60,237 bases of DNA from assembly GCA_045803245.1 (NCBI GenBank), contig JBJMPK010000228.1:1-60237 (forward strand). The letters run 5' to 3'. Origin of the DNA: Gemmatimonadales bacterium. GTDB lineage: Bacteria; Gemmatimonadota; Gemmatimonadetes; Gemmatimonadales; GWC2-71-9. The notes beneath the pieces are model-generated. The model saw only the letters and a program-made list of their open reading frames with translations. It was not told the origin of the DNA and made no database searches. Below are positions 24,533 to 35,768 of this stretch, one piece after another. How positions within the stretch are numbered: the first letter of the stretch is position 1; the number at the start of each line of letters is the position of its first letter. The position numbers were made by a program, and so were the translations under genes.

Positions 24533-25018
24533 ATGATAGCTAGCCCTTGGATCCGGACCGTGGCGCTGATACCTCTGCTCGGCTGCACCCCACTGGGATT
24601 CTGGGTGTATGGCGACCCGGTGGTGAGCGTTTCCCGGGTTACGCTACGACTCGAGCGCCTGAGATACCGGGGGGAATCGCCTGTCGTGGTGGCCCTCGCG
24701 GTGGAGAATCCCAACGATTACGCGCTATCCAGCGAGCGAGTCGAGCTTTCCCTCCGGCTCGACGGCGTGCCCATCGGGAAACTCAGGCGGGACAGTACGG
24801 TGCCGGTCGAGATGGCAGCGGTCTCAACCCTGGCGTTGGCCGTGCCGTTGGAGAAGCAGGCCACTCCCGAGCATCTGGCGGCGCTGGGCTCGGGCACCCA
24901 CAGCTTCGCGGTGCGGGGACGCGCTACCTTCCGGACTCCATTTGGGATGCGAAAGGTGCGTTTTGAACAAGAAGGCGCGATGAAATTCGGCGGGCGAATC
25001 ACCGATTCAGTGCCGTAG
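24533..25018 (+). CDS. LEA type-2 (NDR1/HIN1-like) domain lipoprotein
   Basis: Signal and lipobox ALIPLLGC. Beta-sandwich LEA_2-like pattern (VALAVENPNDYALSSERVELSLRLDGVPIG). 12-nt convergent overlap with the dnaE2 3' end. Confidence 0.55.
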   Translation: MIASPWIRTVALIPLLGCTPLGFWVYGDPVVSVSRVTLRLERLRYRGESPVVVALAVENPNDYALSSERVELSLRLDGVPIGKLRRDSTVPVEMAAVSTLALAVPLEKQATPEHLAALGSGTHSFAVRGRATFRTPFGMRKVRFEQEGAMKFGGRITDSVP

Positions 25019-28000
25019 TCTGGCCTGGACTCGTTCCAGGCGATCCAGCCGGGTAATAGTAAGGGTCACCACTCCAAACTCCTGCTCCACCTTTCCTCGA
25101 AAGATGAACGGTCCCTGGTCGAACAAGACGTGGCCGCGTTCCCGATAGATCCGGGGGAAGAGTACCGCCTCGATCAGTCCGTGACCATCATCGAAGGTGG
25201 CAAACTCCATCGGCTCCTCGTTCTGCGTGTGTACCGGCTTGGCGGTCGTGAGCATGCCGGCCGCCAGGATATGCCGGCCCACGTGACGGTGCAGATCGGT
25301 GCTTCGGCACAGACGAAGCCGCCGGATATGATCGGCGTGGAGCTGCATCGGATGCGCATCGGTCATGAACCCCAGCGCTTGGTACTCTTCCCTGCGGCGG
25401 CGCTCGGGGGAGTACTCCTTGAGAGTTGGAACCGCAGCAGGTAGTTGACTGAACCAATCGTCCAATGGAGCTTCGGCCCCTTCGCTGCACTCAGGGTGAC
25501 AATCAACAGACTCGTCTCTAAACCGCCCCGCCGCCCCGCCGCCCCGCTGCCCCGCTGAATCCACCATCCACAGCATCATCGGCCGGGTCCACCCCTGCGC
25601 GATCGAATCGAGGGCGCCGACCTTGATCAGAAGACGCAGATCTGATGGAGCGATGCCGGTGCGCGCCCGGAAGTCGAAGATGCTTTGGTACGGATGCGAA
25701 GGTGCACGGTCGGTCCAGCCGTCCGCCCGTCCGCCCGTCCGCCCGTCCACCCGCGCAGCGAACACCCGCTCCACCGCGTCCGCCGACAGCCCCTTCACGA
25801 ACTGCAATCCAATCCGGATCTCTTTCCCCTGACCGGTGCAACGGAACTCACTGGCGTTGACATCAGGCGGGAGGATGGTGAGGCCCATCCGCATGGCTTC
25901 CGCTATATACGCGAACGGCTGATAAAACCCACCACCGTTCGACAGCACCGCCGCCATGAACTCCGCCGGATGATTGGCCCGGAGAGCGCAGGCATGCTGC
26001 GCGATCTGGATATAGGAGCACGAGTGTCCTTTGCAGAAGCTGTACCCCGCAAACGACATGATCATCTCCCAGACCTGCTTGGCCGCATCCGGAGCGCGGC
26101 CCAGACGCGCTGCCCCGGCGAAGAATTCCTCCGCATACGCGGCGAGGTGCTTAGTCGGGCGCTTCTTGGAAAGCGCCTTGCGGAGCCCATCGCCTGTGGC
26201 AGGCGACATTCCGGCAAACGTGGCACAGACGTTCACCACGTCCTCCTGGTACACCATGATCCCGAACGATTCGAGGAGGGTGTCCCGCAGCGATGGATCG
26301 AGCGGCTGGTACGGCTGTTTGTTGCGCAGTCGCTCGAGGTAGATGTGTATGTACTTGTTCGACGCCGGACGGATCATGCTGGTATTGAGGACCAGCAGCT
26401 CGAAGGTATCCGCCTGGCTTCTGGCGCAGAGGAGGCGGGAGGCCGGAGATTCGGTGTAAAAAACCCCCATGGTTTGGCCGGTGCGGAACAGAGCCTTGGC
26501 TCCCTCGTCCTCGCCCGCCTCCGCTGAGGTGTAGTCAATGCGATGACTTGTGTTCCCATGCACCGCCGCGATGGCGTCGCGAATCACTGCCAGCGACCGA
26601 TTTCCCAGGAGATCGATCTTCACCAGCCCGGCATCCTCGGTGCCGTCTTTCTCGAACTGAATGACCGGCACCTGGAGATCGGGATCGTCGCTCAGCTGCT
26701 TGGCCGCGGGCTCCACCGGTACGTAATCGGTGAGCGGCGTCGGCGTGATCACCACCCCCCCGGCATGGACCGACAAGTGACGCGGGATGCCAACCAGACT
26801 CTCGGCAGACCGGGCATACTCCTGCCAGGCGGCCGGCAGGCTGAGTCCCCGAAAGTTGGGATGACTCGCCACTAAATCCGGTAGCCGCGCGCCGGTCTCA
26901 TAGAAAAAGGGGATACGCCGCGTCACCTCCCGAATCTCGCCGGCCGGGCGGCCATGCACCTTGGCCACCTCCCGGAGAGCTCCGCGGGGCTGAAAGGTGT
27001 TGTGGTTGGCCACCATGGCAGCATGCAACCGGGGATACCGGCGAAACACGTACGCCAGCACCTTATCCCGCTCGTCCCAGGGAAAATCCAGATCGATATC
27101 GGGCGGGTCACGCCGCTCGAGATTGAGAAAACGCTCGAAGACGAGCTTGGATCCGATCGGGTCCACGTGCGTGATGCCGAGACAGTAGCTTACGACCGAA
27201 TTGGCGACCGAGCCTCGCCCGCAGTGAGTGGGGCCGTTCCGGACAATGTCACGAACCACCAGGAAGTAGTCGGCAAAACCCTTCTGAGCGATGACCCCGA
27301 GCTCCAGGTCGAGCCGCTGCTGCAGCTCCCGGGTGATGACGGGATAGCGCCATCGAGCGCCATCGAGGGTCAAGCCGCGGAGCTGATCGAAGGCACCCGC
27401 GGTGTCGGCCATACGAGGCGGCACGATACGGTTTCCGACCGGAATCTGATAGCGGCATCGCTCCGCGATCTGGGCCGCGGCGAGAATGGCCTCGGGACAA
27501 TCGGGGAAGTGGCGCGCCAGGTCGGGGGTGGAGCAGAGCCAGGCACCGGTGGGCCAGACTGCTTCGGACGGTAGCGCCGATAGCGTGGTGTTCAACGCAA
27601 TGGCGCGAAGCAGGCGGTGTCGGCTCCACTGCTCCGCCTGCGCCGCCACGACGCCGTTGGTGGCGACAACCGGCAGCCGGAGCCGGCGTGCCGCGGCGAG
27701 CACCGCGTGTCGCTCGCGTCCGGGCCGGAGCTCCGCGTAGAGATTCTCCGGGCCACTCAGGCGGAGAACCTGCTCCAGGAAACCCGGGTTGCGCGAGAGA
27801 AGGATGAGGCCATCGCGGTCGTGCGCGAGGAGGGAGGGCAGGCGGACGGGCGTCCGCCAGTGAATTGCGGTGATCGCTCGACACAAGGCCGCCCACCCGC
27901 ATTCATTGGACGCTAATGCCACCACTTCCTGGTCATCTACGACGAGATGGGCCCCCAGTATGGGCCGTACACCAACAGCGGCACAGGCGCGCTGAAACTC

Positions 28001-28138
28001 CACCGCGCCATAGACGCCGTTGGTGTCGGTGCAGGCGAGGGCAGGGAACCCCTGGCTGGCCGCTGCCTCAGCCAGAGCCTCGGGACTCGAGACGCCGATG
28101 CCGAAGGAGAAGTGGGAGTGGACGTGAAGGTGGATCAT
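25007..28138 (-). CDS. dnaE2: Error-prone DNA polymerase III alpha homologue (DnaE2/ImuC)
   Basis: PHP-domain start MIHLHVHSHFSF (Met11 of the track ORF). Pol III alpha core (GRGSVANSVVSYCLGIT, DIDLDF). About 1040 aa, no tau/beta-binding C-terminal extension, OB-fold C-terminus. Confidence 0.85.
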   Translation of the reverse strand: MIHLHVHSHFSFGIGVSSPEALAEAAASQGFPALACTDTNGVYGAVEFQRACAAVGVRPILGAHLVVDDQEVVALASNECGWAALCRAITAIHWRTPVRLPSLLAHDRDGLILLSRNPGFLEQVLRLSGPENLYAELRPGRERHAVLAAARRLRLPVVATNGVVAAQAEQWSRHRLLRAIALNTTLSALPSEAVWPTGAWLCSTPDLARHFPDCPEAILAAAQIAERCRYQIPVGNRIVPPRMADTAGAFDQLRGLTLDGARWRYPVITRELQQRLDLELGVIAQKGFADYFLVVRDIVRNGPTHCGRGSVANSVVSYCLGITHVDPIGSKLVFERFLNLERRDPPDIDLDFPWDERDKVLAYVFRRYPRLHAAMVANHNTFQPRGALREVAKVHGRPAGEIREVTRRIPFFYETGARLPDLVASHPNFRGLSLPAAWQEYARSAESLVGIPRHLSVHAGGVVITPTPLTDYVPVEPAAKQLSDDPDLQVPVIQFEKDGTEDAGLVKIDLLGNRSLAVIRDAIAAVHGNTSHRIDYTSAEAGEDEGAKALFRTGQTMGVFYTESPASRLLCARSQADTFELLVLNTSMIRPASNKYIHIYLERLRNKQPYQPLDPSLRDTLLESFGIMVYQEDVVNVCATFAGMSPATGDGLRKALSKKRPTKHLAAYAEEFFAGAARLGRAPDAAKQVWEMIMSFAGYSFCKGHSCSYIQIAQHACALRANHPAEFMAAVLSNGGGFYQPFAYIAEAMRMGLTILPPDVNASEFRCTGQGKEIRIGLQFVKGLSADAVERVFAARVDGRTGGRADGWTDRAPSHPYQSIFDFRARTGIAPSDLRLLIKVGALDSIAQGWTRPMMLWMVDSAGQRGGGAAGRFRDESVDCHPECSEGAEAPLDDWFSQLPAAVPTLKEYSPERRRREEYQALGFMTDAHPMQLHADHIRRLRLCRSTDLHRHVGRHILAAGMLTTAKPVHTQNEEPMEFATFDDGHGLIEAVLFPRIYRERGHVLFDQGPFIFRGKVEQEFGVVTLTITRLDRLERVQARLRH
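25523..25554. repeat. Octamer array ccgccccg x3 + ctgccccg inside dnaE2
   Basis: Four 8-nt units read directly. They encode SAGQRGGGAAGRF in the dnaE2 frame. Confidence 0.9.
25719..25750. repeat. Octamer array ccgtccgc x3 + ccgtccac inside dnaE2
   Basis: Four 8-nt units read directly. They encode DGRTGGRADGWTDR in the dnaE2 frame. Confidence 0.9.
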
Positions 28139-28148
28139 ACCCAACAGC

Positions 28149-28193
28149 GTGAGCGGGAAAAGACACAACGTGAGCGGTGAGCGGCCCGCTCAC
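28149..28193. repeat. Composite GTGAGCG element with terminal hairpin
   Basis: gtgagcg (28149-55), 14-nt spacer, gtgagcg gtgagcg (28170-83), gcc, cgctcac (28187-93). The last two units form a 7-bp hairpin. Lies between the hydrolase stop and the dnaE2 start. Confidence 0.85.
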
Positions 28194-28199
28194 GCTGTG

Positions 28200-28997
28200 T
28201 CACTTCCCGCTCAGGCTGTCCAGAAACTCATCGAGTATTCGGTTGAATTCATCCGGCTTGTCCAGCTGGATCCAGTGGCCCGTTCCGGCCACCACGCGGT
28301 GGGGGAATCCGTTTCCCAGACGATGGAGGCTGAACGCCTGATCGTTATATGGTGTGACCACCGATAGCTTGGGCCCTTGGTACCGGGCCAGCGAGGAATC
28401 GGGGTCGAACTGCATCACACTCCGGAGGACCGGCAGAACTGTTTCCCGGGGGGTGGCCCGGAGATCTGCGAGGAGCCGGCTTCGGACCGTGCTGTCGGGT
28501 CCGGCTATTTCAGTCCAATACTTCTGGCTCCCGCGGTCGTAGTCCAACTCGAACCCTTCCAGAAACGACTGGATATCGGACGGGGGAATCGCCTTGCTGT
28601 CTCCAATGGGATCCACCAGCAGAAGCCCAGCCACACGGCCCGGATGGTTGCCGGCATACACCAGCGCGGCGCCCCCACCCATACTGTGGCCTACCAGGAC
28701 GAACTGCTGAAGGCCGAGAGAGTTGGCCACCGCGCTGACATCACTGGCCATGGCATCGATTGAATAGTCTCCGTTTCTGGCCGGCTCAGACCGGCCGTGT
28801 CCCCGGAAATCGAAGGCGATGGCGCGGCGCTGTGGCCGCAAGCGCTCCAGCTGCGCCTTCCACTGCCTTGTGTTGCCCGCCACAGAATGCACCAACACGA
28901 CCGGCAAATCTCCCCCTAGCTCGGCAGGGGGACCGCCGTCGTCGACGACCAGGGTTCCTGCCGGACCTACGACCCGAATACCCCGCTCACCGCTCAC
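28200..28997 (-). CDS. Alpha/beta-fold hydrolase
   Basis: 265 aa. HSVAGN oxyanion region, nucleophile elbow GHSMGG, C-terminal His context GTGHW. The proposed GTG start lies within a repeat unit. Confidence 0.8.
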   Translation of the reverse strand: MSGERGIRVVGPAGTLVVDDGGPPAELGGDLPVVLVHSVAGNTRQWKAQLERLRPQRRAIAFDFRGHGRSEPARNGDYSIDAMASDVSAVANSLGLQQFVLVGHSMGGGAALVYAGNHPGRVAGLLLVDPIGDSKAIPPSDIQSFLEGFELDYDRGSQKYWTEIAGPDSTVRSRLLADLRATPRETVLPVLRSVMQFDPDSSLARYQGPKLSVVTPYNDQAFSLHRLGNGFPHRVVAGTGHWIQLDKPDEFNRILDEFLDSLSGK

Positions 28998-29018
28998 GCT
29001 TTTCTCTCCCGCTTACGC
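28984..29018. repeat. Heptamer array cgctcac cgctcac + degenerate units
   Basis: Covers the tag stop (TGA, 28987-89 on minus) and the hydrolase GTG start (28995-97). Confidence 0.85.
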
Positions 29019-29553
29019 TTTGGTACGACCAGGCAGGCCGCTGCTTCAGGATCGACGGATACACGGGACAGCGCTTCACATGGGCCCCAGGCAGATACCC
29101 GATGCTCATGAGAAACTCGCCTACAATCTCGCCGCCGGTAAAGCGAAACGTTTGCTTGAAGAGCTTGACCCACTCTTCCTTCGAGCGAGGATGATGCGCG
29201 GCCAGCCACGCGGCGAAGGAGCGGTGCGTTTTCCGAAGCTCGAGAATGCGCTGGGCATTGGCGATAGCGGCGTCGACCTTGAGCCGGTTGCGAATGATCC
29301 CCGCATCGGCCAACAGCCGCTTGCGGTCGGCAGCGCCATAGCAGGCTACGATGTCGGGATCGAATCCATCGTAGGCCCGCCGGAACGCCTCCCGCTTCTT
29401 GAGAATGGTGAGCCAGGAGAGACCGGCCTGATTGATTTCCAGCACCAACCGCTCGAACAGCGCCGAGTCATCCTCGAGCGGGAAGCCGTACTCGTGATCG
29501 TGGTAGGGTCCGTGCCACTCATGACCTGGTGCGGCATCGCAGTAGGTGGTCAT
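28987..29553 (-). CDS. tag: DNA-3-methyladenine glycosylase I
   Basis: HDHEYGFP, LFE.L.LE..QAGLSW..IL.KR..FR and FRFTGGEIVGEFLMSIG match the Tag family. The tail SVSGREKRER is repeat-encoded. Confidence 0.9.
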   Translation of the reverse strand: MTTYCDAAPGHEWHGPYHDHEYGFPLEDDSALFERLVLEINQAGLSWLTILKKREAFRRAYDGFDPDIVACYGAADRKRLLADAGIIRNRLKVDAAIANAQRILELRKTHRSFAAWLAAHHPRSKEEWVKLFKQTFRFTGGEIVGEFLMSIGYLPGAHVKRCPVYPSILKQRPAWSYQSVSGREKRER

Positions 29554-29555
29554 AG

Positions 29556-29658
29556 TATTGGCTATTCGCTAAGGGCTGTTGGCAAAGCTATATGTAGCAG
29601 ATATCTCATTGTTCGCGCTGTAGCCAATAGCCAATAGCCAATAGCCAATAGCCAACAT
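29556..29658. repeat. Inverted pair of heptamer arrays (TATTGGC-like x4) ... (CCAATAG x4 + ccaacat)
   Basis: Left arm 29556-29583: tattggc tattcgc taagggc tgttggc. Right arm 29624-29658: four perfect ccaatag units running into the qor ATG (29657). Fills the divergent tag/qor intergenic region. Confidence 0.9.
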
Positions 29659-30634
29659 GCGTGCTGTGATCTACGAGGGAGCAGGAGGCCCCGAAGTCAT
29701 CACCATCGGCGAAGTGCCCAAGCCCGAAGTGGGCAAGGAGCACATCAGGGTAAAGGTTCACGCCGCGGGATTGAACCGGGCCGACTTGATTCAGCGGCGG
29801 GGCCACTACGCGGCGCCGCACGGCTGGCCGGCGAACATCCCGGGCCTCGAATACGCCGGCGAAGTCGAAGCGGTCCGTCCCGGCGTGACTCGCTGGAAGG
29901 TGGGCGACCGGGTGATGGGACTCGTTGGCGGAGGTGCCCAGGCGGAATTTGTCGTCGTGCACCAGGATGAGGTGTTTCCCATTCCGGCGGGATTGACGTA
30001 TCAGGAAGCTGCGGCGATTCCCGAGGCATTTCTCACTGCCTATGATGCCCTGGTAACTCGGGGCCGGCTCCAGTCGGGTGAGCGAGTGGTGATCCACGCC
30101 GCCGGAAGCGGGGTGGGGACCGCCGCCTCGCAGGTGGCCAAGCAGCTCGGCGCCACGGTGCTCGGAACATCCCGCAGCGGCGACAAGCTGGCCCGGGCTC
30201 TGGTCTATGGCCTCGACGTCGGGATCGACGTTAGCCGGACGCCTTTTCGCGACGCAGTCGGCGAGCCCGTCGATGTGATTCTCGACGTACTCGGCGGACC
30301 CGCCTTTGCCGACAACCTGGCGGTGCTCGCGCAGCGGGGGCGGCTGGTCCTGCTGGGTTTCCTGGCCGGCAGCCGGACCGAAGCTGACCTGGGACCGCTT
30401 CTCGGGAAGAGACTCGAGGTCATCGGCACCGTCATGAGGACTCGTGGTCATGAGGAACGAGTTGCACTGGTCCGCGAGTTCAGTCAGCGAATGCTGCCGC
30501 TGTTCGAGCCCCGCGAGGGAGGGGCAACTCTCCGTCCAGTCCTGGAGCGAAGCTATCCGATGACTCAACTGGCGGAGGCGCATCGGGTTCTCGAGGATAA
30601 CGCCAGCTTCGGAAAGATCGTCGTCGTCTGGTGA
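29657..30634 (+). CDS. qor: NAD(P)H:quinone oxidoreductase (zeta-crystallin/MDR family)
   Basis: 325 aa. MDR pattern: N-terminal GroES-like part, Rossmann motif VVIHAAGSGVGTAA, C-terminal FGKIVV. Confidence 0.8.
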   Translation: MRAVIYEGAGGPEVITIGEVPKPEVGKEHIRVKVHAAGLNRADLIQRRGHYAAPHGWPANIPGLEYAGEVEAVRPGVTRWKVGDRVMGLVGGGAQAEFVVVHQDEVFPIPAGLTYQEAAAIPEAFLTAYDALVTRGRLQSGERVVIHAAGSGVGTAASQVAKQLGATVLGTSRSGDKLARALVYGLDVGIDVSRTPFRDAVGEPVDVILDVLGGPAFADNLAVLAQRGRLVLLGFLAGSRTEADLGPLLGKRLEVIGTVMRTRGHEERVALVREFSQRMLPLFEPREGGATLRPVLERSYPMTQLAEAHRVLEDNASFGKIVVVW

Positions 30635-31911
30635 GGGGGGAGCGGTGAGCGGTGAGCGGTGAGCGGGCCACCCCGCAGCGCTCCAGCGCCGTATCGATCA
30701 CGAATACGGTCGAGGGCGTGCTGAAGGGCGGACGGTCGGACGGTCGGACGGTCGGAGGAGGTCACGGCAAGGTCTCCCATTGCCTGTCCGCCGGTACGCC
30801 CGTCCGTCCGTCCGCCCCACAGCTCCAGCTGCGTCTCCCCTTCCATCAGTCGGTCCAATGTGAGCGACACCGACCGGACCGCCAGGCGCTTGGTATTGGC
30901 GAGCGCAAAAGCACGTCGCGCGGCGTCCCATAGCTCGGTATCCAGCACCGCGGCATTGAGCGGCAGGGCTCGAGCTGTGGCGGTATAGTCGGCATACGTC
31001 GCCTCCAGCCGGAGCTGTCCCGCGACCAGGCCACGCGCACGCACCCGACGTCCGAGACGCTCGCTCAGGGCACGAAGTAGCGGATGCAGGATGCCGAGGT
31101 CGTTGGTGTCGGTAGCCAGAGTGTGGACCACATAAAATTCCCTCTGGCGCTCGGGTGGCAGCACTGGCCGCGGGTCGATGCCCCGGGCCCGGGCCCGAAG
31201 TATCCGGCCACTGCGGCCGAAGACAGCACATAACGCGTCTTCGTGAATGGCGGCGATTTCTCCGATGAGATCGAGCTGATAATCCTCCAGTCTCTCGCGC
31301 ATGCGTGGATCCAGCTCCGGGAGCACCTCGATTGGATGAGGAGCCAGAAAGCTCCGTTCGTTGCCGAGGGGGACGCACAGTAATTCGGAACCGGCTTGCC
31401 CCCACCCGCTACGCGGGTACCCGGCCCGTCCGACTATCCACCGGTCTGCCCGAATCGCCGCCTGACTCACAAGCTTGTTGGCCGCGACCCCAACCGACAG
31501 AGGCAACCCCAGCCGCTCGCTTGCCTCCCGCCGGATCCGTGCGGCGACGTCTTCGGGAGGACCGAAGAGGCGGCCGGTTCCGGTGAGGTCGAGGAAAGCG
31601 TGACCGTAGCCCCGCGGCTCGATGGCCGGCGCGTAAGCCCGTAAGATCTCGTGCAGCGCACGAGAAGCCCGAGCATAGAGCCTTGGGTTGGGTGGCAGGA
31701 CAATGAGATCGGGACAGAGCCGCTGGGCCTTGCGGACGGCCATTCCCCGCTGGAGGCCGGCCGATCGCGCCTCTGCCGAGAGCGCGAGGATCGTGGCGCG
31801 ATCGGCGCCCGGCGGTGCCACAGCCAGAGGACGCGTTCTCAGCTCGGGCGCGACCATGCCTTCCAGGGTGGTGCAGAAGGCGGGAGGGTCCACGAAGAGA
31901 ACGGAGCGCAT
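30565..31911 (-). CDS. imuB: ImuB: Y-family polymerase homologue lacking catalytic carboxylates
   Basis: DinB-like fold (RPLAV, LCPDL, LPLSVGVAANKLVSQAA). The catalytic sites are replaced: VDMD becomes VDPP and SLDEAYLD becomes GYGHAFLD. The 3' end is uncertain; the last ~35 codons read through a repeat array and antisense qor. Confidence 0.75.
   Translation of the reverse strand: MRSVLFVDPPAFCTTLEGMVAPELRTRPLAVAPPGADRATILALSAEARSAGLQRGMAVRKAQRLCPDLIVLPPNPRLYARASRALHEILRAYAPAIEPRGYGHAFLDLTGTGRLFGPPEDVAARIRREASERLGLPLSVGVAANKLVSQAAIRADRWIVGRAGYPRSGWGQAGSELLCVPLGNERSFLAPHPIEVLPELDPRMRERLEDYQLDLIGEIAAIHEDALCAVFGRSGRILRARARGIDPRPVLPPERQREFYVVHTLATDTNDLGILHPLLRALSERLGRRVRARGLVAGQLRLEATYADYTATARALPLNAAVLDTELWDAARRAFALANTKRLAVRSVSLTLDRLMEGETQLELWGGRTDGRTGGQAMGDLAVTSSDRPTVRPSALQHALDRIRDRYGAGALRGGPLTAHRSPLPPHQTTTIFPKLALSSRTRCASAS
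30631..30665. repeat. Heptamer array gtgaggg gggagcg gtgagcg x3
   Basis: The qor stop TGA (30632-34) lies in the first unit. The opposite strand is stop-free and is read through by the imuB ORF. Confidence 0.9.
30731..30815. repeat. Inverted pair of octamer arrays (gacggtcg x3) ... (ctgtccgc cggtacgc ccgtccgt ccgtccgc) inside imuB
   Basis: Left arm 30731-30754, right arm 30784-30815. Translated in the imuB frame as GGRTDGRTGGQAMGDLAVTSSDRPTVRPS. Confidence 0.9.
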
Positions 31912-31926
31912 GAGATACCAAAAAAC

Positions 31927-32015
31927 GTGAACAGTAAACGGTGAACGGTGAACAGGATTGATGTCAGGGATTTTCGTGGAATCCCCCTGTTAACTGTTCA
32001 CCGTTCACGGTTCAC
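31927..32015. repeat. 89-bp imperfect palindrome of GTGAACR heptamers with inner hairpin
   Basis: Left arm 31927-31954: gtgaaca gtaaacg gtgaacg gtgaaca. Right arm 31988-32015: tgttaac tgttcac cgttcac ggttcac. Inner stem GGGATT (31967-72) / AATCCC (31980-85). Lies between the VOC stop and the imuB start. Confidence 0.9.
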
Positions 32016-32349
32016 TCTTATCTGACCACACGGCCAGCTCGTTGCCGCTAGGATCGGTAAAGTGGAACCGCCGGCCACCGGGAAAGCTGAAGATGGGCTT
32101 TACAATGGTGCCCCCGGCCTGGCTGACCTGTTGCTCCATGGCCTCGAGATCAGCCGCATAGATGATCACCAGCGGGCCGCCGGGTCGAACCTTTTCTTGC
32201 GTCTGGAAGCCGCCGCTCAGCCGGCCATCGGCGAAGCTGGCATAGTCGGGCCCGTAGTCCTCGAAGGTCCAGCCGAATGCGCTGCCGTAAAACTGCTTTG
32301 CCTCCGGCACGTTCTGGACGGAAAACTCGATGTAATCGATGCGGTTCAT
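32005..32349 (-). CDS. VOC/glyoxalase-bleomycin-resistance family protein
   Basis: 114 aa. IDYIEF.V.N...A..FY..AFGW.F and FHF.DPSGNELAVW are typical of the single-domain VOC fold. 4-nt overlap with the radical SAM gene. Confidence 0.75.
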   Translation of the reverse strand: MNRIDYIEFSVQNVPEAKQFYGSAFGWTFEDYGPDYASFADGRLSGGFQTQEKVRPGGPLVIIYAADLEAMEQQVSQAGGTIVKPIFSFPGGRRFHFTDPSGNELAVWSDKSEP

Positions 32350-33734
32350 AACAGTATTGCCTGCTCGTTTGCGGGGTCAGGACTGGGGTTGGACTGCGCG
32401 GCAGCTTCCATCCGCCGCCGGCGTCTATAATTCGCTTCATCGCCCCCAAAGCCAAATGCGGTTCGCAGGGCGTTGAGCCGGCGAGTAAGGGCCTCCTGAT
32501 AATCCTGACTGGCCAAATCACTTCGGGCGTAATGTCGCCGATACCGCTCGGCCAATTGTGGAAACTCTTTCTCGAGGACGGGAAGAAAGCGATGTCGCGC
32601 CGCGGGACCGAGCCGGAGCGCCGACCCGATGACATAGCGTGCACCCGCCTCCTTCGCCGCCTCGATCAGCCGGGCTAATCCAGCCCAGTCATCGGTGATC
32701 CCGGGAAGGATCGGGGCTACTATGAGCCCCGCATGGACGCCCCCTTCAATGAGCCGTCGCAGCGCCCGCAGCCTAGCCGACGGCACGGGGGATCGGAGCT
32801 CCAGCCGGCGGGCGAGCCCCGGATCGGCCGTGGCGAGCGAAATGTTCACACTCATTTCGTTCCGTTCCGAAATCCCCCGTAGGAGATCCAGATCTCGGGT
32901 GACGAGGGGAGACTTGGTGATAATCTCGATCGATAGTCCGTGATAGGAACGCAAGACCTCGAGAATTCGACGGGTGAGCTGGAACTTCCGCTCCGCCGGC
33001 TGATAGGGATCGGTGGCGGTGCCGATGACCAATGAGTGACCGGCTACCCGCGCAGGATTGAGCGTGCGCGCAAGCACCTCGGCGACCCCCGATTTGACCA
33101 GGATCTCCTTTTCGAAGGCCTCCCAAGGCGGCAGGCGGCCGACCGACTGTCCGCCCGTCCGCCTGCCCGCCCGCTCCATCACCCACCGATGCGTGTCCCG
33201 GGCGTAACAGTAGGTGCAGCCGAACTCACAGCCGACATACGGGTTGATCGACCAGAAACCCATGCCGGTAGAAGCCGGCGTGTTGAGGACGGAGCGCACC
33301 GGCAACCCGATGAAGCTGGTGCCTCGGGAACGTTGGTCCAGAACCGGCAGCGGGGCAGCGGGGCTGCGGGGTAGTATCAGCGTTTCTGGGAAGAGATCGG
33401 CCGGTAGGTCGATTTGCTTCCCTGCTGCCCCGCTGTCCCGCTGCCCCGCTTTCACCCGCACAGCCCCCACCCACACTGAGTGCAGCTGATACATCCCGAA
33501 GAGCGGACGAGCAGGCCTGCGCATTCGGGACATTTGCCCAGTGGCTTGGTAGCGTTGCTGCCCTGCAAGGTCGGCTGGGTGGGAAGTGGAGTGGGGTAGG
33601 TCTGATATGGCGACACGGGAGTCCCCCGATCTTCTTCGGTCTTTATTCGGTACGCTATCCGAATATAGGCCGAAGCTCAGGGGGACGTCAAGATGCCCAA
33701 ATAGAGGATGGGCCTTCCAGGCCATTGACCCCAC
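32346..33734 (-). CDS. Radical SAM protein, SplB-like (COG1533, 'DNA repair photolyase' type); start uncertain
   Basis: SINPYVGCEFGCTYCYAR carries the CxxxCxxC radical SAM cluster motif in the context typical of this family. The N-terminal ~100 codons of the track ORF may not be translated. Confidence 0.75.
   Translation of the reverse strand: MGSMAWKAHPLFGHLDVPLSFGLYSDSVPNKDRRRSGDSRVAISDLPHSTSHPADLAGQQRYQATGQMSRMRRPARPLFGMYQLHSVWVGAVRVKAGQRDSGAAGKQIDLPADLFPETLILPRSPAAPLPVLDQRSRGTSFIGLPVRSVLNTPASTGMGFWSINPYVGCEFGCTYCYARDTHRWVMERAGRRTGGQSVGRLPPWEAFEKEILVKSGVAEVLARTLNPARVAGHSLVIGTATDPYQPAERKFQLTRRILEVLRSYHGLSIEIITKSPLVTRDLDLLRGISERNEMSVNISLATADPGLARRLELRSPVPSARLRALRRLIEGGVHAGLIVAPILPGITDDWAGLARLIEAAKEAGARYVIGSALRLGPAARHRFLPVLEKEFPQLAERYRRHYARSDLASQDYQEALTRRLNALRTAFGFGGDEANYRRRRRMEAAAQSNPSPDPANEQAILL
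33147..33170. repeat. Octamer array ctgtccgc ccgtccgc ctgcccgc inside the radical SAM gene
   Basis: Read directly. Encodes AGRRTGGQSVGR, located just after the CxxxCxxC motif. Confidence 0.85.
33417..33456. repeat. Octamer array cttccctg ctgccccg ctgtcccg ctgccccg ctttcacc
   Basis: Read directly. Lies in the 5' region of the radical SAM ORF (KAGQRDSGAAGKQ). Confidence 0.85.
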
Positions 33735-33820
33735 TTATCTCTTACCGAAATTGTATTACCGACTGGCGTTCTTCGGGCCAGCTTCCCGTCACCATCATTT
33801 TTACGTTCGTAGATTCTGCC

Positions 33821-34450
33821 ATGGCAGCACGAGCTTCTCCATCCTCGTATTCCCCGGCCTGGGGAACAGCCACCGGGTCGACCATCCTGATCGCCGATGA
33901 TGATGCGGTCATTCGCAGCCTTTGTTGCCGAACCCTGCAACAAGATGGCGCGACGGTATTGGAGGCGGAGGATGGTGAAGCAGCGCTCAGGCTGATAGAA
34001 GACCACGATGATATCGACCTGGTCATTACGGACCTGACCATGCCCCGATTGGGCGGGCATGAAGTGGCCGAAGTCCTCTCGGTGTTCCGGCCCGGTCTCC
34101 CGGTTCTGGCCATGTCGGGCACGGCCCACAAAATGGAGCCGGACCGCCGCCTGCCGGTTCTGGCCAAACCGTTCTCCGCTGCAGCGCTGATAGCGGTAAC
34201 CCGGGAAATGCGTCTTCGGGCGCGTGAGGTGCGGATCTGGGCCGACGAAAAACGGGCCCAGGCTCGAGAGCTCTACCAGATTGCCGCTGCCATGCAGAAA
34301 ACCAACCCAGGCCCGCCGGAAAAAATCGATCTGGTGGCAGTCGGGCGGGAGCTGATGAAACGAGGACATCCGAATCTGACCCGCGCAGCCGCCCGTCCTC
34401 CTCTACGTTCGCGAGCGCCGTCTCCCACGATTTCGGGCCCTGGTAGTTAA
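33821..34450 (+). CDS. CheY-like response regulator (receiver domain + unstructured C-terminal region)
   Basis: Start at Met33 of the track ORF. ILIADDD, DLVITDLTMPRLGG and LAKPF are receiver hallmarks. Confidence 0.75.
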   Translation: MAARASPSSYSPAWGTATGSTILIADDDAVIRSLCCRTLQQDGATVLEAEDGEAALRLIEDHDDIDLVITDLTMPRLGGHEVAEVLSVFRPGLPVLAMSGTAHKMEPDRRLPVLAKPFSAAALIAVTREMRLRAREVRIWADEKRAQARELYQIAAAMQKTNPGPPEKIDLVAVGRELMKRGHPNLTRAAARPPLRSRAPSPTISGPGS

Positions 34451-34535
34451 GCCCTCCCGCACTGCCTGGCTCACCACGCCCATCTAGCATCGCTTCCGTT
34501 GAGCACTCGCGCGGTCGGCAAGGCTAAGATTCCGG

Positions 34536-35768
34536 GTGTCCATGAATCGCCGTGTCGCCATTATCGGAGCCGGCGCCGCCGGCTCGATGGCAGCAATCTT
34601 TGCGGCTTCGGCGGGCGCCGAGACGCTGCTACTCGAGAGCACCAGGGATGGCGGGCGCAAGATCCTCATCAGCGGCGGCGGCCGCTGCAATATTCTCCCA
34701 GCCCGGGTGGACGAACGGCGCTTCGTCACTGATTCCTCGCCGAACACCCTCCGCAAGATTCTCCGTTCGTGGCCACTGGCCGAGCAGGTCGACTTCTTCG
34801 CCCGGGACCTGGACCTGCCATTGGTCGAGGAAGAAGAAACGGCCAAGCTCTTCCCGGTATCGAACCGCGCCCGCGACGTACGCGACGGACTCCTGGCGCT
34901 GGCGGCCCGCCGGGGCACCCGCTTCATGCCCAAGACAACGGTTGTCGGTATCGCTCCCACATCGAACGGCTGGAGAGTGGAGAGCGATGGCGCGCCGCCG
35001 CTCTCGGTGGACGCTGTGGTCGTGGCGAGTGGTGGCCTCTCGGTGCCGGCCACCGGCAGCGATGGGCGGGGGCTCGCGATGCTCGCCCAACTGGGCCATA
35101 CCGTCCATCCGACCTATCCGGCGCTCACTCCCGTCGTAGCGGAGCCGTCGCCTTTTGCCGCCCTCGCCGGCATCTCCCTCCCGGTAACGGTCACAGCACG
35201 GGAGGACGGCAGGAGCGCAACCTCCACCGGCGGATTCCTCTTTACCCACCGAGGATACAGCGGGCCCGCGGTGCTGGATGTCTCCCACGTCCTGGTGCGC
35301 TCACGGATGGAAGGAGAATCGGGAGCCCGCCTTCTCGTACGGTGGACCGGGCTCGACGCGAGGGCTTGGGAGGCCGCCCTCAAGCCTGAGGGCACTGGAT
35401 CCGTAATGGGCGTGCTCCGGCGTGAGCTACCCGATCGGCTGGCCGGAGAGATAGCCGGCATGGCCGGTGTCCCGCTCTCCCGTACTCTGGCGCAACTGCG
35501 TCGGGACGAGCGGGTCAGGTTGATCGAGGCACTAGTCCGTGGTGAGCTTCGCTGGACCTCTGACGAGGGCTATAAGAAGGCGGAGGTGACAGGGGGCGGT
35601 GTAAGTCTGGCCGAGATCGATACCGGGACCATGGAGAGCCGACGCCATCGCGGCCTCTTTCTCTGTGGGGAGGTGCTGGATGCCTTCGGTCCGATCGGGG
35701 GGTACAATTTTCTCTGGGCCTGGGCTACCGGCCGCGCGGCGGGCAGTGCCGCTGCGCGCCGTCCCTGA
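34536..35768 (+). CDS. HI0933/BaiN-like NAD(P)/FAD-dependent oxidoreductase
   Basis: VAIIGAGAAG dinucleotide fold, GGGRCN motif, TGGGVSL, and GEVLDAFGPIGGYNF C-terminal signature of the family. Confidence 0.8.
   Translation: MSMNRRVAIIGAGAAGSMAAIFAASAGAETLLLESTRDGGRKILISGGGRCNILPARVDERRFVTDSSPNTLRKILRSWPLAEQVDFFARDLDLPLVEEEETAKLFPVSNRARDVRDGLLALAARRGTRFMPKTTVVGIAPTSNGWRVESDGAPPLSVDAVVVASGGLSVPATGSDGRGLAMLAQLGHTVHPTYPALTPVVAEPSPFAALAGISLPVTVTAREDGRSATSTGGFLFTHRGYSGPAVLDVSHVLVRSRMEGESGARLLVRWTGLDARAWEAALKPEGTGSVMGVLRRELPDRLAGEIAGMAGVPLSRTLAQLRRDERVRLIEALVRGELRWTSDEGYKKAEVTGGGVSLAEIDTGTMESRRHRGLFLCGEVLDAFGPIGGYNFLWAWATGRAAGSAAARRP

Follow-up and report, generated by a model that had tools for sequence, protein, structure and literature searches.

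The window analyzed here is a stretch of 60,237 nt, contig JBJMPK010000228.1 of a metagenome-assembled genome of the order Gemmatimonadales (GenBank assembly GCA_045803245.1). The subject is a gene island at 25,007–33,734, in which dnaE2, encoding a C-family DNA polymerase, and a gene for an inactive Y-family polymerase (iPolY) stand among genes related to DNA damage. In our reading, to which we give a probability of roughly three in four, this is an SOS translesion island of a soil Gemmatimonadales, and its core is the known DnaE2B–iPolY–RecA mutasome, whose ancestral operon has been taken apart. Comparison with relatives adds a candidate LexA box for the phylum, a promoter that appears to be shared by iPolY and by a gene pair for a zinc-ribbon protein and a radical S-adenosylmethionine (SAM) enzyme resembling spore photoproduct lyase (SPL), and a dnaE2 gene that now seems to stand without an operator of its own. 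The gene content, order, and strands given in an earlier, preliminary description of this DNA were confirmed, and its placing of the mutasome pair among DNA damage genes is supported.

In the proposed mechanism, the dead iPolY would be tethered to the β clamp through the motif QLELW and to RecA through a motif resembling the RecA N terminus, and would recruit the active, error-prone DnaE2 to stalled forks, with RecA standing in for ImuA. The ancestral operon, an SOS box followed by iPolY and dnaE2, would have been dismantled in this lineage. iPolY now probably lies behind an SOS unit of the zinc-ribbon and radical SAM genes, with a later VOC insert and a common operator and promoter, whereas dnaE2 would have come to lie 2.4 kb away behind tag and a hydrolase gene, beyond the opposite-strand qor.

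The genome (3.1 Mb, 282 contigs) is 92% complete. Gene neighborhoods were compared in 80 related loci, and co-occurrence was counted in 101 high-quality genomes sampled across the order. A protein homologue search with iPolY returned close Gemmatimonadales relatives only. The public runs with the window sequence were soil DNA metagenomes, and the one metatranscriptome yielded a single identical contig, inside the radical SAM gene.

An inactive Y-family polymerase of the gbDinB2-like group

The open reading frame (ORF) of iPolY occupies 30,565–31,911 on the minus strand. The first catalytic Asp is kept, in VDPPAF (DPP for DxD), and the catalytic Asp–Glu pair is replaced by Gly–His in GYGHAFLD. 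Both motifs are invariant across 13 aligned relatives, in agreement with the loss of the catalytic residues already reported for this gene, then called imuB. After the little finger domain, the protein carries the β-clamp motif QLELW, a variable linker, and the RecA-N-terminus-like motif LQHALDRIRDRYGAGAL, past which conservation ends. The conserved part stops near 30,667; the last ~33 residues of the ORF, whose codons lie in a heptamer array and opposite the 3′ end of qor, are unconserved. No ImuB-C domain was found in the alignment with relatives, in which the conserved protein ends just past the RecA-N-terminus motif.

The sequence could be aligned end to end with the gbDinB2-like iPolY proteins of Citrifermentans bremense (34% identity, E = 1e-53) and Nitrospira japonica (31% identity, E = 9e-50). 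QLELW and LQHALDRIRDRYG align with the corresponding motifs of these published gbDinB2-like members, which share the disrupted active site as well. The Y-family protein is best classed, from these alignments, as a gbDinB2-like iPolY and not as a typical ImuB. A second Y-family polymerase is encoded elsewhere in the genome (contig C147:5515, ORF to 6687). It has HVDLDAFF and SLDEGYLD and is apparently active; its C terminus (LTAAVDKLRGKFGFDAV) also resembles the RecA N terminus, and no SOS box was found upstream of it.

The DnaE2 polymerase and the absence of ImuA

The dnaE2 ORF spans 25,007–28,168 on the minus strand. Its true start is likely the ATG at 28,138 (gene 25,007–28,138) because the proteins of relatives begin with MF/IHLHVH. 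The polymerase aspartates are intact (PDIDLDF and KIDLLG), and the PHP motif is degenerate, with TDTNG for TDHGN. Over the N-terminal 420 residues, identity is 43% with the Citrifermentans DnaE2B and 31% with DnaE1 of the same genome, the DnaE2B reference being a fragment and the class being assigned from identity rather than from a tree. The replicative DnaE1 (1167 residues) is encoded on contig C141 and scores 1325 bits against an NCBIfam cut-off of 1002; DnaE2 is 33% identical to it. The island polymerase is thus classed by sequence as DnaE2B-like and distinct from the replicative enzyme, as the preliminary description had supposed.

That description had also remarked on the lack of imuA, and a genome-wide search bears it out. 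With the NCBIfam model of ImuA, the best match in the genome had an E value of 0.52, in a test with a weak control, the model staying below its cut-off even in Caulobacter. With phmmer and the ImuA proteins of Pseudomonas aeruginosa, T. terrifontis, and Mycobacterium tuberculosis as queries, no ImuA was detected in the genome's six-frame ORFs (best E = 0.065) or in those of the 80 related loci. Two ImuB-C sequences likewise gave no match in the six-frame ORFs or in the 80 loci. The ImuA and ImuB-C queries were taken from the supplement of PMC12926913. The weak best match of the ImuA model is C281:24518-25471, a 317-residue RecA-fold protein resembling the DnaB C terminus (GDISSGKSALGLGIA...), which is not ImuA by that test; a (GCGGGGCA)n array precedes its gene.

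Across the order, iPolY was found in 16 of the 101 genomes and this DnaE2 in 18, and all 16 genomes with iPolY also have DnaE2. One of the two seemingly DnaE2-only genomes does hold iPolY, broken by a contig end. RecA and LexA are both encoded in the present genome. A DnaE2B–iPolY–RecA module in genomes devoid of ImuA has been described (Timinskas and Venclovas, 2019, PMC6511836; 2026, PMC12926913), typically with the operon order LexA→iPolY→DnaE2 (PMC6511836 supplement). Judged by sequence features, the system in the window is this published module, and its ImuA-less state is already known. The imuA–imuB–dnaE2 ancestor assumed in the preliminary description is hence not upheld: the Y-family protein appears to be gbDinB2-like without ImuB-C, and the group had already been described as lacking ImuA.

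Candidate SOS operator and promoter

A σ70-like promoter, TTGACG-18-TATATT (33,662–33,691, minus strand; 10 of 12 consensus matches), was the sole one detected on the minus strand of 24,800–34,600 in a crude consensus scan. Its −10 element lies inside SOS box 1 (TTCGGCCTATATTCGG, 33,659–33,674, minus strand), a candidate LexA operator in the form of a direct repeat with an 11-bp period. SOS box 2 (TTCGGTCTTTATTCGG, 33,635–33,650, plus strand) is inverted with respect to box 1, spans the expected transcription start, and has the top position weight matrix (PWM) score in the genome (29.8). The consensus of the boxes is TTCGG-NN-T-W-T-R-TTCGG (TTCGG-N5-RTTCGG), also a direct repeat of 11-bp period.

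The exact form TTCGG-N5-ATTCGG occurs five times in the genome: once in the lexA promoter, twice, inverted, in the promoter of the radical SAM unit, once in the promoter of a repair-type radical SAM gene on contig C18, and once probably within coding sequence. Of 30 lexA loci from relatives in three families, 26 have the box in the lexA promoter, mostly as a tandem pair placed between and after the −35 and −10 elements. Among the 80 related loci, nearly all of those with the region on the contig also have it upstream of the radical SAM unit. The recA gene is split across two contig ends (C53:13068-13212 and C33:22566-22970), and its promoter, on C53, carries a box with one mismatch (CTTCGGCTTGCTTTCGGTAT). 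The occurrence of the motif in lexA's own promoter in three families is as expected of LexA autoregulation. The alphaproteobacterial LexA box, GTTC-N7-GTTC, is a direct repeat like this one (PMC8565304). We propose TTCGG-N5-RTTCGG as a candidate LexA box of the phylum; the literature search turned up no publication that treats LexA or the SOS response of Gemmatimonadota.

A scan for LexA boxes had been suggested for the spacers of the island. The two boxes lie, with the promoter, within 33,635–33,691; none was found in the qor–tag spacer (29,554–29,656) and none for iPolY itself. The notion that a LexA box is hidden in the heptamer arrays, in which GTTC recurs, was rejected; their period is 7 and not 11, and their PWM scores are strongly negative.

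The gene on C18 (C18:2022-3329; LRILMTNACSYNCHYCPMR...) is a second radical SAM gene, with a helix-hairpin-helix-like C terminus, and looks like the "DNA modification/repair radical SAM" type. The −35 and −10 elements of its promoter have a top-scoring SOS box between them. In the window, an apparent stand-alone CheY-like receiver gene (~33,859–34,450, plus strand; ILIADDDAVIRS...DLVITDLTMP...), as read from its sequence alone, is divergent from the SOS promoter; relatives do not conserve it at this site.

A probable shared promoter for iPolY and the split from dnaE2

Where the radical SAM unit lies directly upstream of iPolY, with or without the VOC gene, iPolY has no box of its own ~40 nt upstream (0 of 57 loci). 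Such a box is seen in 12 of the 13 loci with the unit farther off than 700 nt and in seven of the nine loci in which the radical SAM gene is not on the contig; the two exceptions among these nine are contigs cut just upstream of VOC. Because iPolY has its own box only where the radical SAM unit is non-adjacent, this distribution argues that the zinc-ribbon gene, the radical SAM gene, VOC where present, and iPolY are read from one SOS promoter and would form a single transcript. The preliminary description had separated a radical SAM–VOC unit from imuB, and the operator comparison speaks for one unit instead. The 4-nt overlap that it gave for the radical SAM and VOC genes was confirmed: the VOC/glyoxalase-fold protein (114 residues; 32,005–32,349, minus strand) overlaps the radical SAM stop by 4 nt. 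VOC is present in about a third of the related loci, a pattern that marks it as a clade-specific insert between radical SAM and iPolY.

The order radical SAM–(VOC)–iPolY–qor–tag–(hydrolase)–dnaE2 is found in tens of species at 56–83% identity. In the clade of the window, iPolY and dnaE2 are adjacent in none of the 32 loci holding both, at distances of 1.5–8.7 kb (2397 nt in the window, matching the 2.4 kb given earlier), and dnaE2 is off-locus in many relatives. In three divergent genera of the same family (G111, G092, and G068), box, iPolY, and dnaE2 are adjacent, the box region being off-contig in G068; in two of the three, the zinc-ribbon–radical SAM unit is separate and has its own box. 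Since these divergent genera keep the adjacent arrangement, the split is best regarded as derived, a point on which the preliminary description was right, but also as old and common to many species, and the ancestral cassette appears to have been without imuA.

Between the two polymerase genes lie qor, tag, and the hydrolase gene. The first (29,657–30,634, plus strand) encodes a PIG3-family NAD(P)H quinone oxidoreductase (327.7 bits; cut-off, 296.8) and has no SOS box. It overlaps the iPolY ORF convergently by 70 nt, the 3′ ends of the two genes overlap in many species, and qor is the convergent neighbor of iPolY in 47 of 61 loci. The tag product is a Tag-like DNA-3-methyladenine glycosylase I (28,987–29,553, minus strand; Pfam, 139.9 bits; under the NCBIfam cut-off). 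The α/β hydrolase gene (28,200–28,997, minus strand) is a clade-specific insert between tag and dnaE2. The coupling of dnaE2 with tag claimed earlier stands as far as gene order goes, as tag or tag plus hydrolase is directly 5′ of dnaE2 in 24 of 32 loci; the unit of this clade has no recognizable SOS box. Some relatives do have a box before tag or dnaE2, at −29 to −90, and in four relatives the qor–tag spacer is just 25 nt. Induction of dnaE2 in the present genome could come from transcription that reads through antisense to qor or that begins at a promoter within qor; the gene could also escape induction.

The zinc-ribbon gene and the radical SAM enzyme

Upstream of the radical SAM gene is an uncalled gene for a zinc-ribbon protein of 54 residues (33,452–33,616, minus strand), which ends with KCPECAGLLVRSSGCISCTQCGWGLCG and the stop codon, in a frame separate from that of the radical SAM ORF. 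Its stop codon (TGA) overlaps the start codon (GTG) of the radical SAM gene. The same ORF lies upstream of the radical SAM gene in 65 related loci, with six Cys residues and CGWG invariant, and the stop/start overlap in relatives is usually GTGA or ATGA. From this overlap in relatives, the start of the radical SAM gene was placed at the GTG at 33,455. The start at 33,734 taken in the preliminary description was rejected as an artifact, given that the separate zinc-ribbon ORF and the promoter with its boxes lie above 33,455.

The radical SAM enzyme (369 residues; 32,346–33,455, minus strand) is of the PA0069/Rv2578c (COG1533) type and has the cluster motif CEFGCTYC. Its best NCBIfam families are Rv2578c (213.8 bits; cut-off, 430) and PA0069 (199.9 bits; cut-off, 360), and it scores below both cut-offs. 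The CX3CX2C ligands C76, C80, and C83 are invariant and are the only invariant Cys residues of the enzyme. No significant match to Protein Data Bank (PDB) sequences was found with the radical SAM sequence. With its AlphaFold model (predicted local distance difference test score, 81), the top six Foldseek matches were all SPL (best E = 3.7e-7; template modeling scores, 0.49–0.59), and the predicted fold is closest to that of SPL. Relatives of the enzyme belong to known SOS regulons: Rv2578c is a LexA target in M. tuberculosis (PMC3381160), COG1533 radical SAM proteins ("SplB") are recurrent members of the SOS regulon (PMC8565304), and PA0069 is listed as an SOS gene of P. aeruginosa in a preprint that cites Cirz 2006 (bioRxiv 10.1101/2022.03.14.484287).

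The Cys pattern of the zinc-ribbon peptide, C-x2-C-x9-C-x2-C-x2-C-x4-C-G-stop, recalls the C-terminal zinc finger of class II ribonucleotide reductase (RNR), C-x2-C-x9-C-x2-C-x2-C-x5-C, in which four Cys bind zinc and two carry electrons to the active site (PMC5704485); the last spacing is one residue off the x5 of NrdJ. In NCBIfam, the peptide aligns with the final 37 positions of the NrdJ model (E = 4e-6). A profile built from 37 zinc-ribbon peptides retrieved 905 clusters, and small proteins predominate among the best 150 of the 905. Nine of the 10 long matches scanned were RNRs with the motif at the extreme C terminus, and the tenth matched in an intein splicing domain only. The profile gave no significant match to PDB sequences. 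Two more small homologues were found in other contexts, each followed by an overlapping Rv2578c-type radical SAM gene (54–56% identical), and the same box lies upstream of both. Two low-GC homologues are in phage-like contexts without a radical SAM gene. Small six-Cys homologues of 35–47 residues were seen at loci L119–L121 and L125, in phage-like gene clusters of low-GC organisms (neighbors RusA, methyltransferase, terminase, and portal) that have no radical SAM gene alongside. In the metagenomic gene call P0148, the zinc-ribbon motif is joined in frame to the radical SAM N terminus with one Cys lost, through either a genuine fusion or a frameshift in the call. No description of a small six-Cys gene overlapping a radical SAM start was found in the literature searched.

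The cluster ligands being the only invariant Cys residues of the radical SAM enzyme, we tentatively raise the idea, which is more probably wrong than right, that the six-Cys protein is a free-standing RNR redox tail that serves the SPL-like enzyme in trans by supplying a missing thiol or electron relay. If so, the pair would be a two-component, SOS-induced radical DNA-repair enzyme, whose promoter here would also have captured the scaffold subunit of the DnaE2 mutasome.

Repeat arrays and hairpins at the gene junctions

Arrays lie at 28,170, 28,983, 29,621, 30,630, 31,927, and 31,996, and Tandem Repeats Finder (TRF) located 483 heptamer and 355 octamer array loci genome-wide. Per 8.7 kb, the island has six heptamer arrays (genome mean, 1.25; top 1.7% of 8.7-kb windows) and seven octamer arrays (mean, 0.9), the genome maximum. 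G/C-rich octamer arrays lie in frame within dnaE2, iPolY, and the radical SAM gene (25,523–25,555, 25,713–25,753, 30,729–30,817, 33,139–33,173, and 33,346–33,450). At octamer-array sites, orthologues have low-complexity inserts of varied length (GRTGG, GQRGGGAAGQ, etc.).

Before iPolY, a hairpin of inverted GTGAACN heptamer arrays followed by U6 (31,916–32,020, minus strand; −48 kcal/mol, z = −5) ends 9 nt before the ATG. The view that it is a conserved intrinsic terminator was rejected: only 4 of 57 relatives have the T-run, and the spacer is 2–30 nt long in many of them, so that the hairpin may be at most an attenuator. In more than 20 species, whether VOC is present or not, the arrays immediately before the iPolY start belong to one family, of GTTCAC/GTTTAC units. 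At the convergent iPolY/qor junction, in the unconserved iPolY tail, the array (GGTGAGC)5 (30,630–30,666) forms no hairpin (z = +1.3). The divergent qor–tag spacer contains an inverted pair of TAGCCAA-type heptamers around a core of ~43 nt. Such an inverted pair around a ~40-nt core was seen in the qor–tag spacers of many species (relatives L004–L047), with units that vary by species (TAGCCAA, GGAGCTG, CACGAAA, CTTCGTG, CACAGAGG, and GTGAACA). Between the hydrolase gene and dnaE2 is a long hairpin of GTGAGCG-type units (28,139–28,215, minus strand; −66.6 kcal/mol, z = −9.6).

Arrays had been reported at every junction and tentatively tied to the rearrangement of an ancestral cassette. Their presence at these junctions and their enrichment in the island were confirmed, but not their causal role, as the same order is kept in tens of species, the units vary, and arrays are common genome-wide. 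Since the junction units differ among species, the arrays seem to be replaced over time while the order of the genes stays fixed; they mark the junctions and do not explain the rearrangement.

Weighing the interpretation

Several points weigh against an SOS-controlled, dismantled DnaE2B–iPolY–RecA module. In NCBIfam, DnaE2 reaches neither the cut-off of the DnaE model nor that of the error-prone polymerase model. As the genome is 92% complete, the absence of imuA is not absolute. Neither an SOS box nor a recognizable promoter was found before tag, the hydrolase gene, or dnaE2 in this genome and its close clade, and damage control of dnaE2 here is presumptive. The hairpin with U6 between VOC and iPolY could terminate the SOS transcript, and the transcript evidence, one metatranscriptome contig of 191 nt within the radical SAM gene, is too little for operon structure. 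LexA binding to the box is predicted, as is the formation of a complex by iPolY, DnaE2, and RecA. The locus counts come from kindred species and are not independent events.

The arrays at every junction and their enrichment in the island might suggest that a canonical imuA–imuB–dnaE2 cassette was recently broken by array recombination, with loss of imuA and creation of a new damage-tolerance module. That the split is derived would agree with this, and so would the canonical ImuA–ImuB1–DnaE2 operon of the cultured Gemmatimonas aurantiaca (PMC6511836 supplement). We consider such an origin very improbable. The Y-family protein is gbDinB2-like and lacks ImuB-C, the family ancestor was probably box–iPolY–dnaE2 without imuA, the gene order is common to tens of species, and the junction units vary by species in a genome with hundreds of heptamer loci. 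It is also quite unlikely that the island consists of two independent halves, an SOS operon from zinc-ribbon to iPolY and a constitutive or differently regulated tag–hydrolase–dnaE2 unit kept nearby by inherited synteny. The boxless tag and dnaE2 of the clade, the intervening opposite-strand gene, the variable distance, and the frequent off-locus position of dnaE2 fit that arrangement; the strict co-occurrence (16 of 16 genomes with iPolY), the adjacency in divergent genera, and the boxes before tag or dnaE2 in other relatives do not, and no role is known for a dead polymerase that lacks a catalytic partner (PMC12926913).

If the DnaE2B–iPolY–RecA module has been dismantled as we propose, dnaE2 might still be under SOS control through read-through from iPolY, antisense to qor, into tag–hydrolase–dnaE2, an excludon-like transcript of 8.6 kb. 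The minus strand from 33,691 to 25,007 has one promoter-like and zero terminator-like sites, no hairpin is formed by the array at the end of iPolY, many species have iPolY and qor overlapping at their 3′ ends, and the 25-nt spacers in four relatives are too short for a tag promoter. However, the transcript is predicted from the crude consensus scan, strong hairpins stand at three junctions, and a promoter within qor is equally possible, so that we regard the long transcript as unlikely. Regulators of the damage response other than LexA exist in other phyla, and one of them might bind TTCGG-N5-RTTCGG, for which LexA is only the predicted ligand. We hold this to be improbable in view of the motif in the lexA promoter in three families, which fits autoregulation, its presence upstream of recA and classic SOS genes, and its 11-bp-period direct repeat, like the alphaproteobacterial box (PMC8565304).

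Taken as a dismantled DnaE2B–iPolY–RecA module, the island would provide a testable operator and core regulon (lexA, recA, two radical SAM repair units, and iPolY) for a poorly studied soil phylum. The related loci would form a natural rearrangement series of an ImuA-free module: first an adjacent operon, then a fusion of the unit with a repair enzyme, and finally the split arrangement. Gain and loss of the operator track adjacency in this series, which is informative on how mutasome expression is kept under damage control. The uncalled small gene may tie the cysteine-tail chemistry of RNRs to the uncharacterized PA0069/Rv2578c repair family.

Comparison with known systems

The published DnaE2B–iPolY–RecA module shares with the island an inactive iPolY with clamp and C-terminal RecA-N-terminus motifs, the lack of ImuB-C, a genome without ImuA, a DnaE2B-like polymerase, and SOS-type control, at identities of 31–34% for full-length iPolY and 43% for the N-terminal part of DnaE2. 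The published operon runs LexA→iPolY→DnaE2, whereas here lexA is elsewhere, iPolY follows zinc-ribbon–radical SAM(–VOC), and dnaE2 lies 2.4 kb off behind tag and the hydrolase gene without a box of its own. The module has been described in Spirochaetes, Nitrospirae, and Deltaproteobacteria, not in Gemmatimonadota. The canonical ImuA–ImuB–DnaE2 system of Mycobacterium, Pseudomonas, and Caulobacter also pairs a dead Y-family scaffold, with clamp and RecA-N-terminus motifs, with a non-replicative C-family polymerase in a damage context. Unlike that system, the island has no ImuA and no ImuB-C, fused or free, its polymerase genes are non-adjacent, and its DnaE2 is under the cut-off of the error-prone polymerase model.

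The radical SAM enzyme resembles the SOS-associated COG1533 proteins PA0069 and Rv2578c in its best NCBIfam families, in a LexA-type operator upstream, and in having SPL as the nearest solved fold. It differs from them in scoring under both cut-offs, in the small six-Cys gene overlapping its start, and in its apparent co-transcription with iPolY. The six-Cys protein and the NrdJ zinc finger (Loderer et al., 2017, PMC5704485) have six Cys with near-identical spacing at the extreme C terminus, the profile of the former retrieves RNR C termini, and the partner enzyme uses 5′-deoxyadenosyl radical chemistry in both cases. In contrast to NrdJ, the protein here is free-standing (~50 residues) without the TSCPD part, its last spacing is x4 instead of x5, its partner is a radical SAM enzyme and not an RNR, and its redox function is predicted. 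The candidate operator and the alphaproteobacterial LexA box, GTTC-N7-GTTC, are both direct repeats of 11-bp period with a TTC core over lexA, recA, and translesion promoters, whereas the half-site here is TTCGG, the spacer has a conserved T-W-T, the lineage is another one, and the motif is a candidate LexA target.

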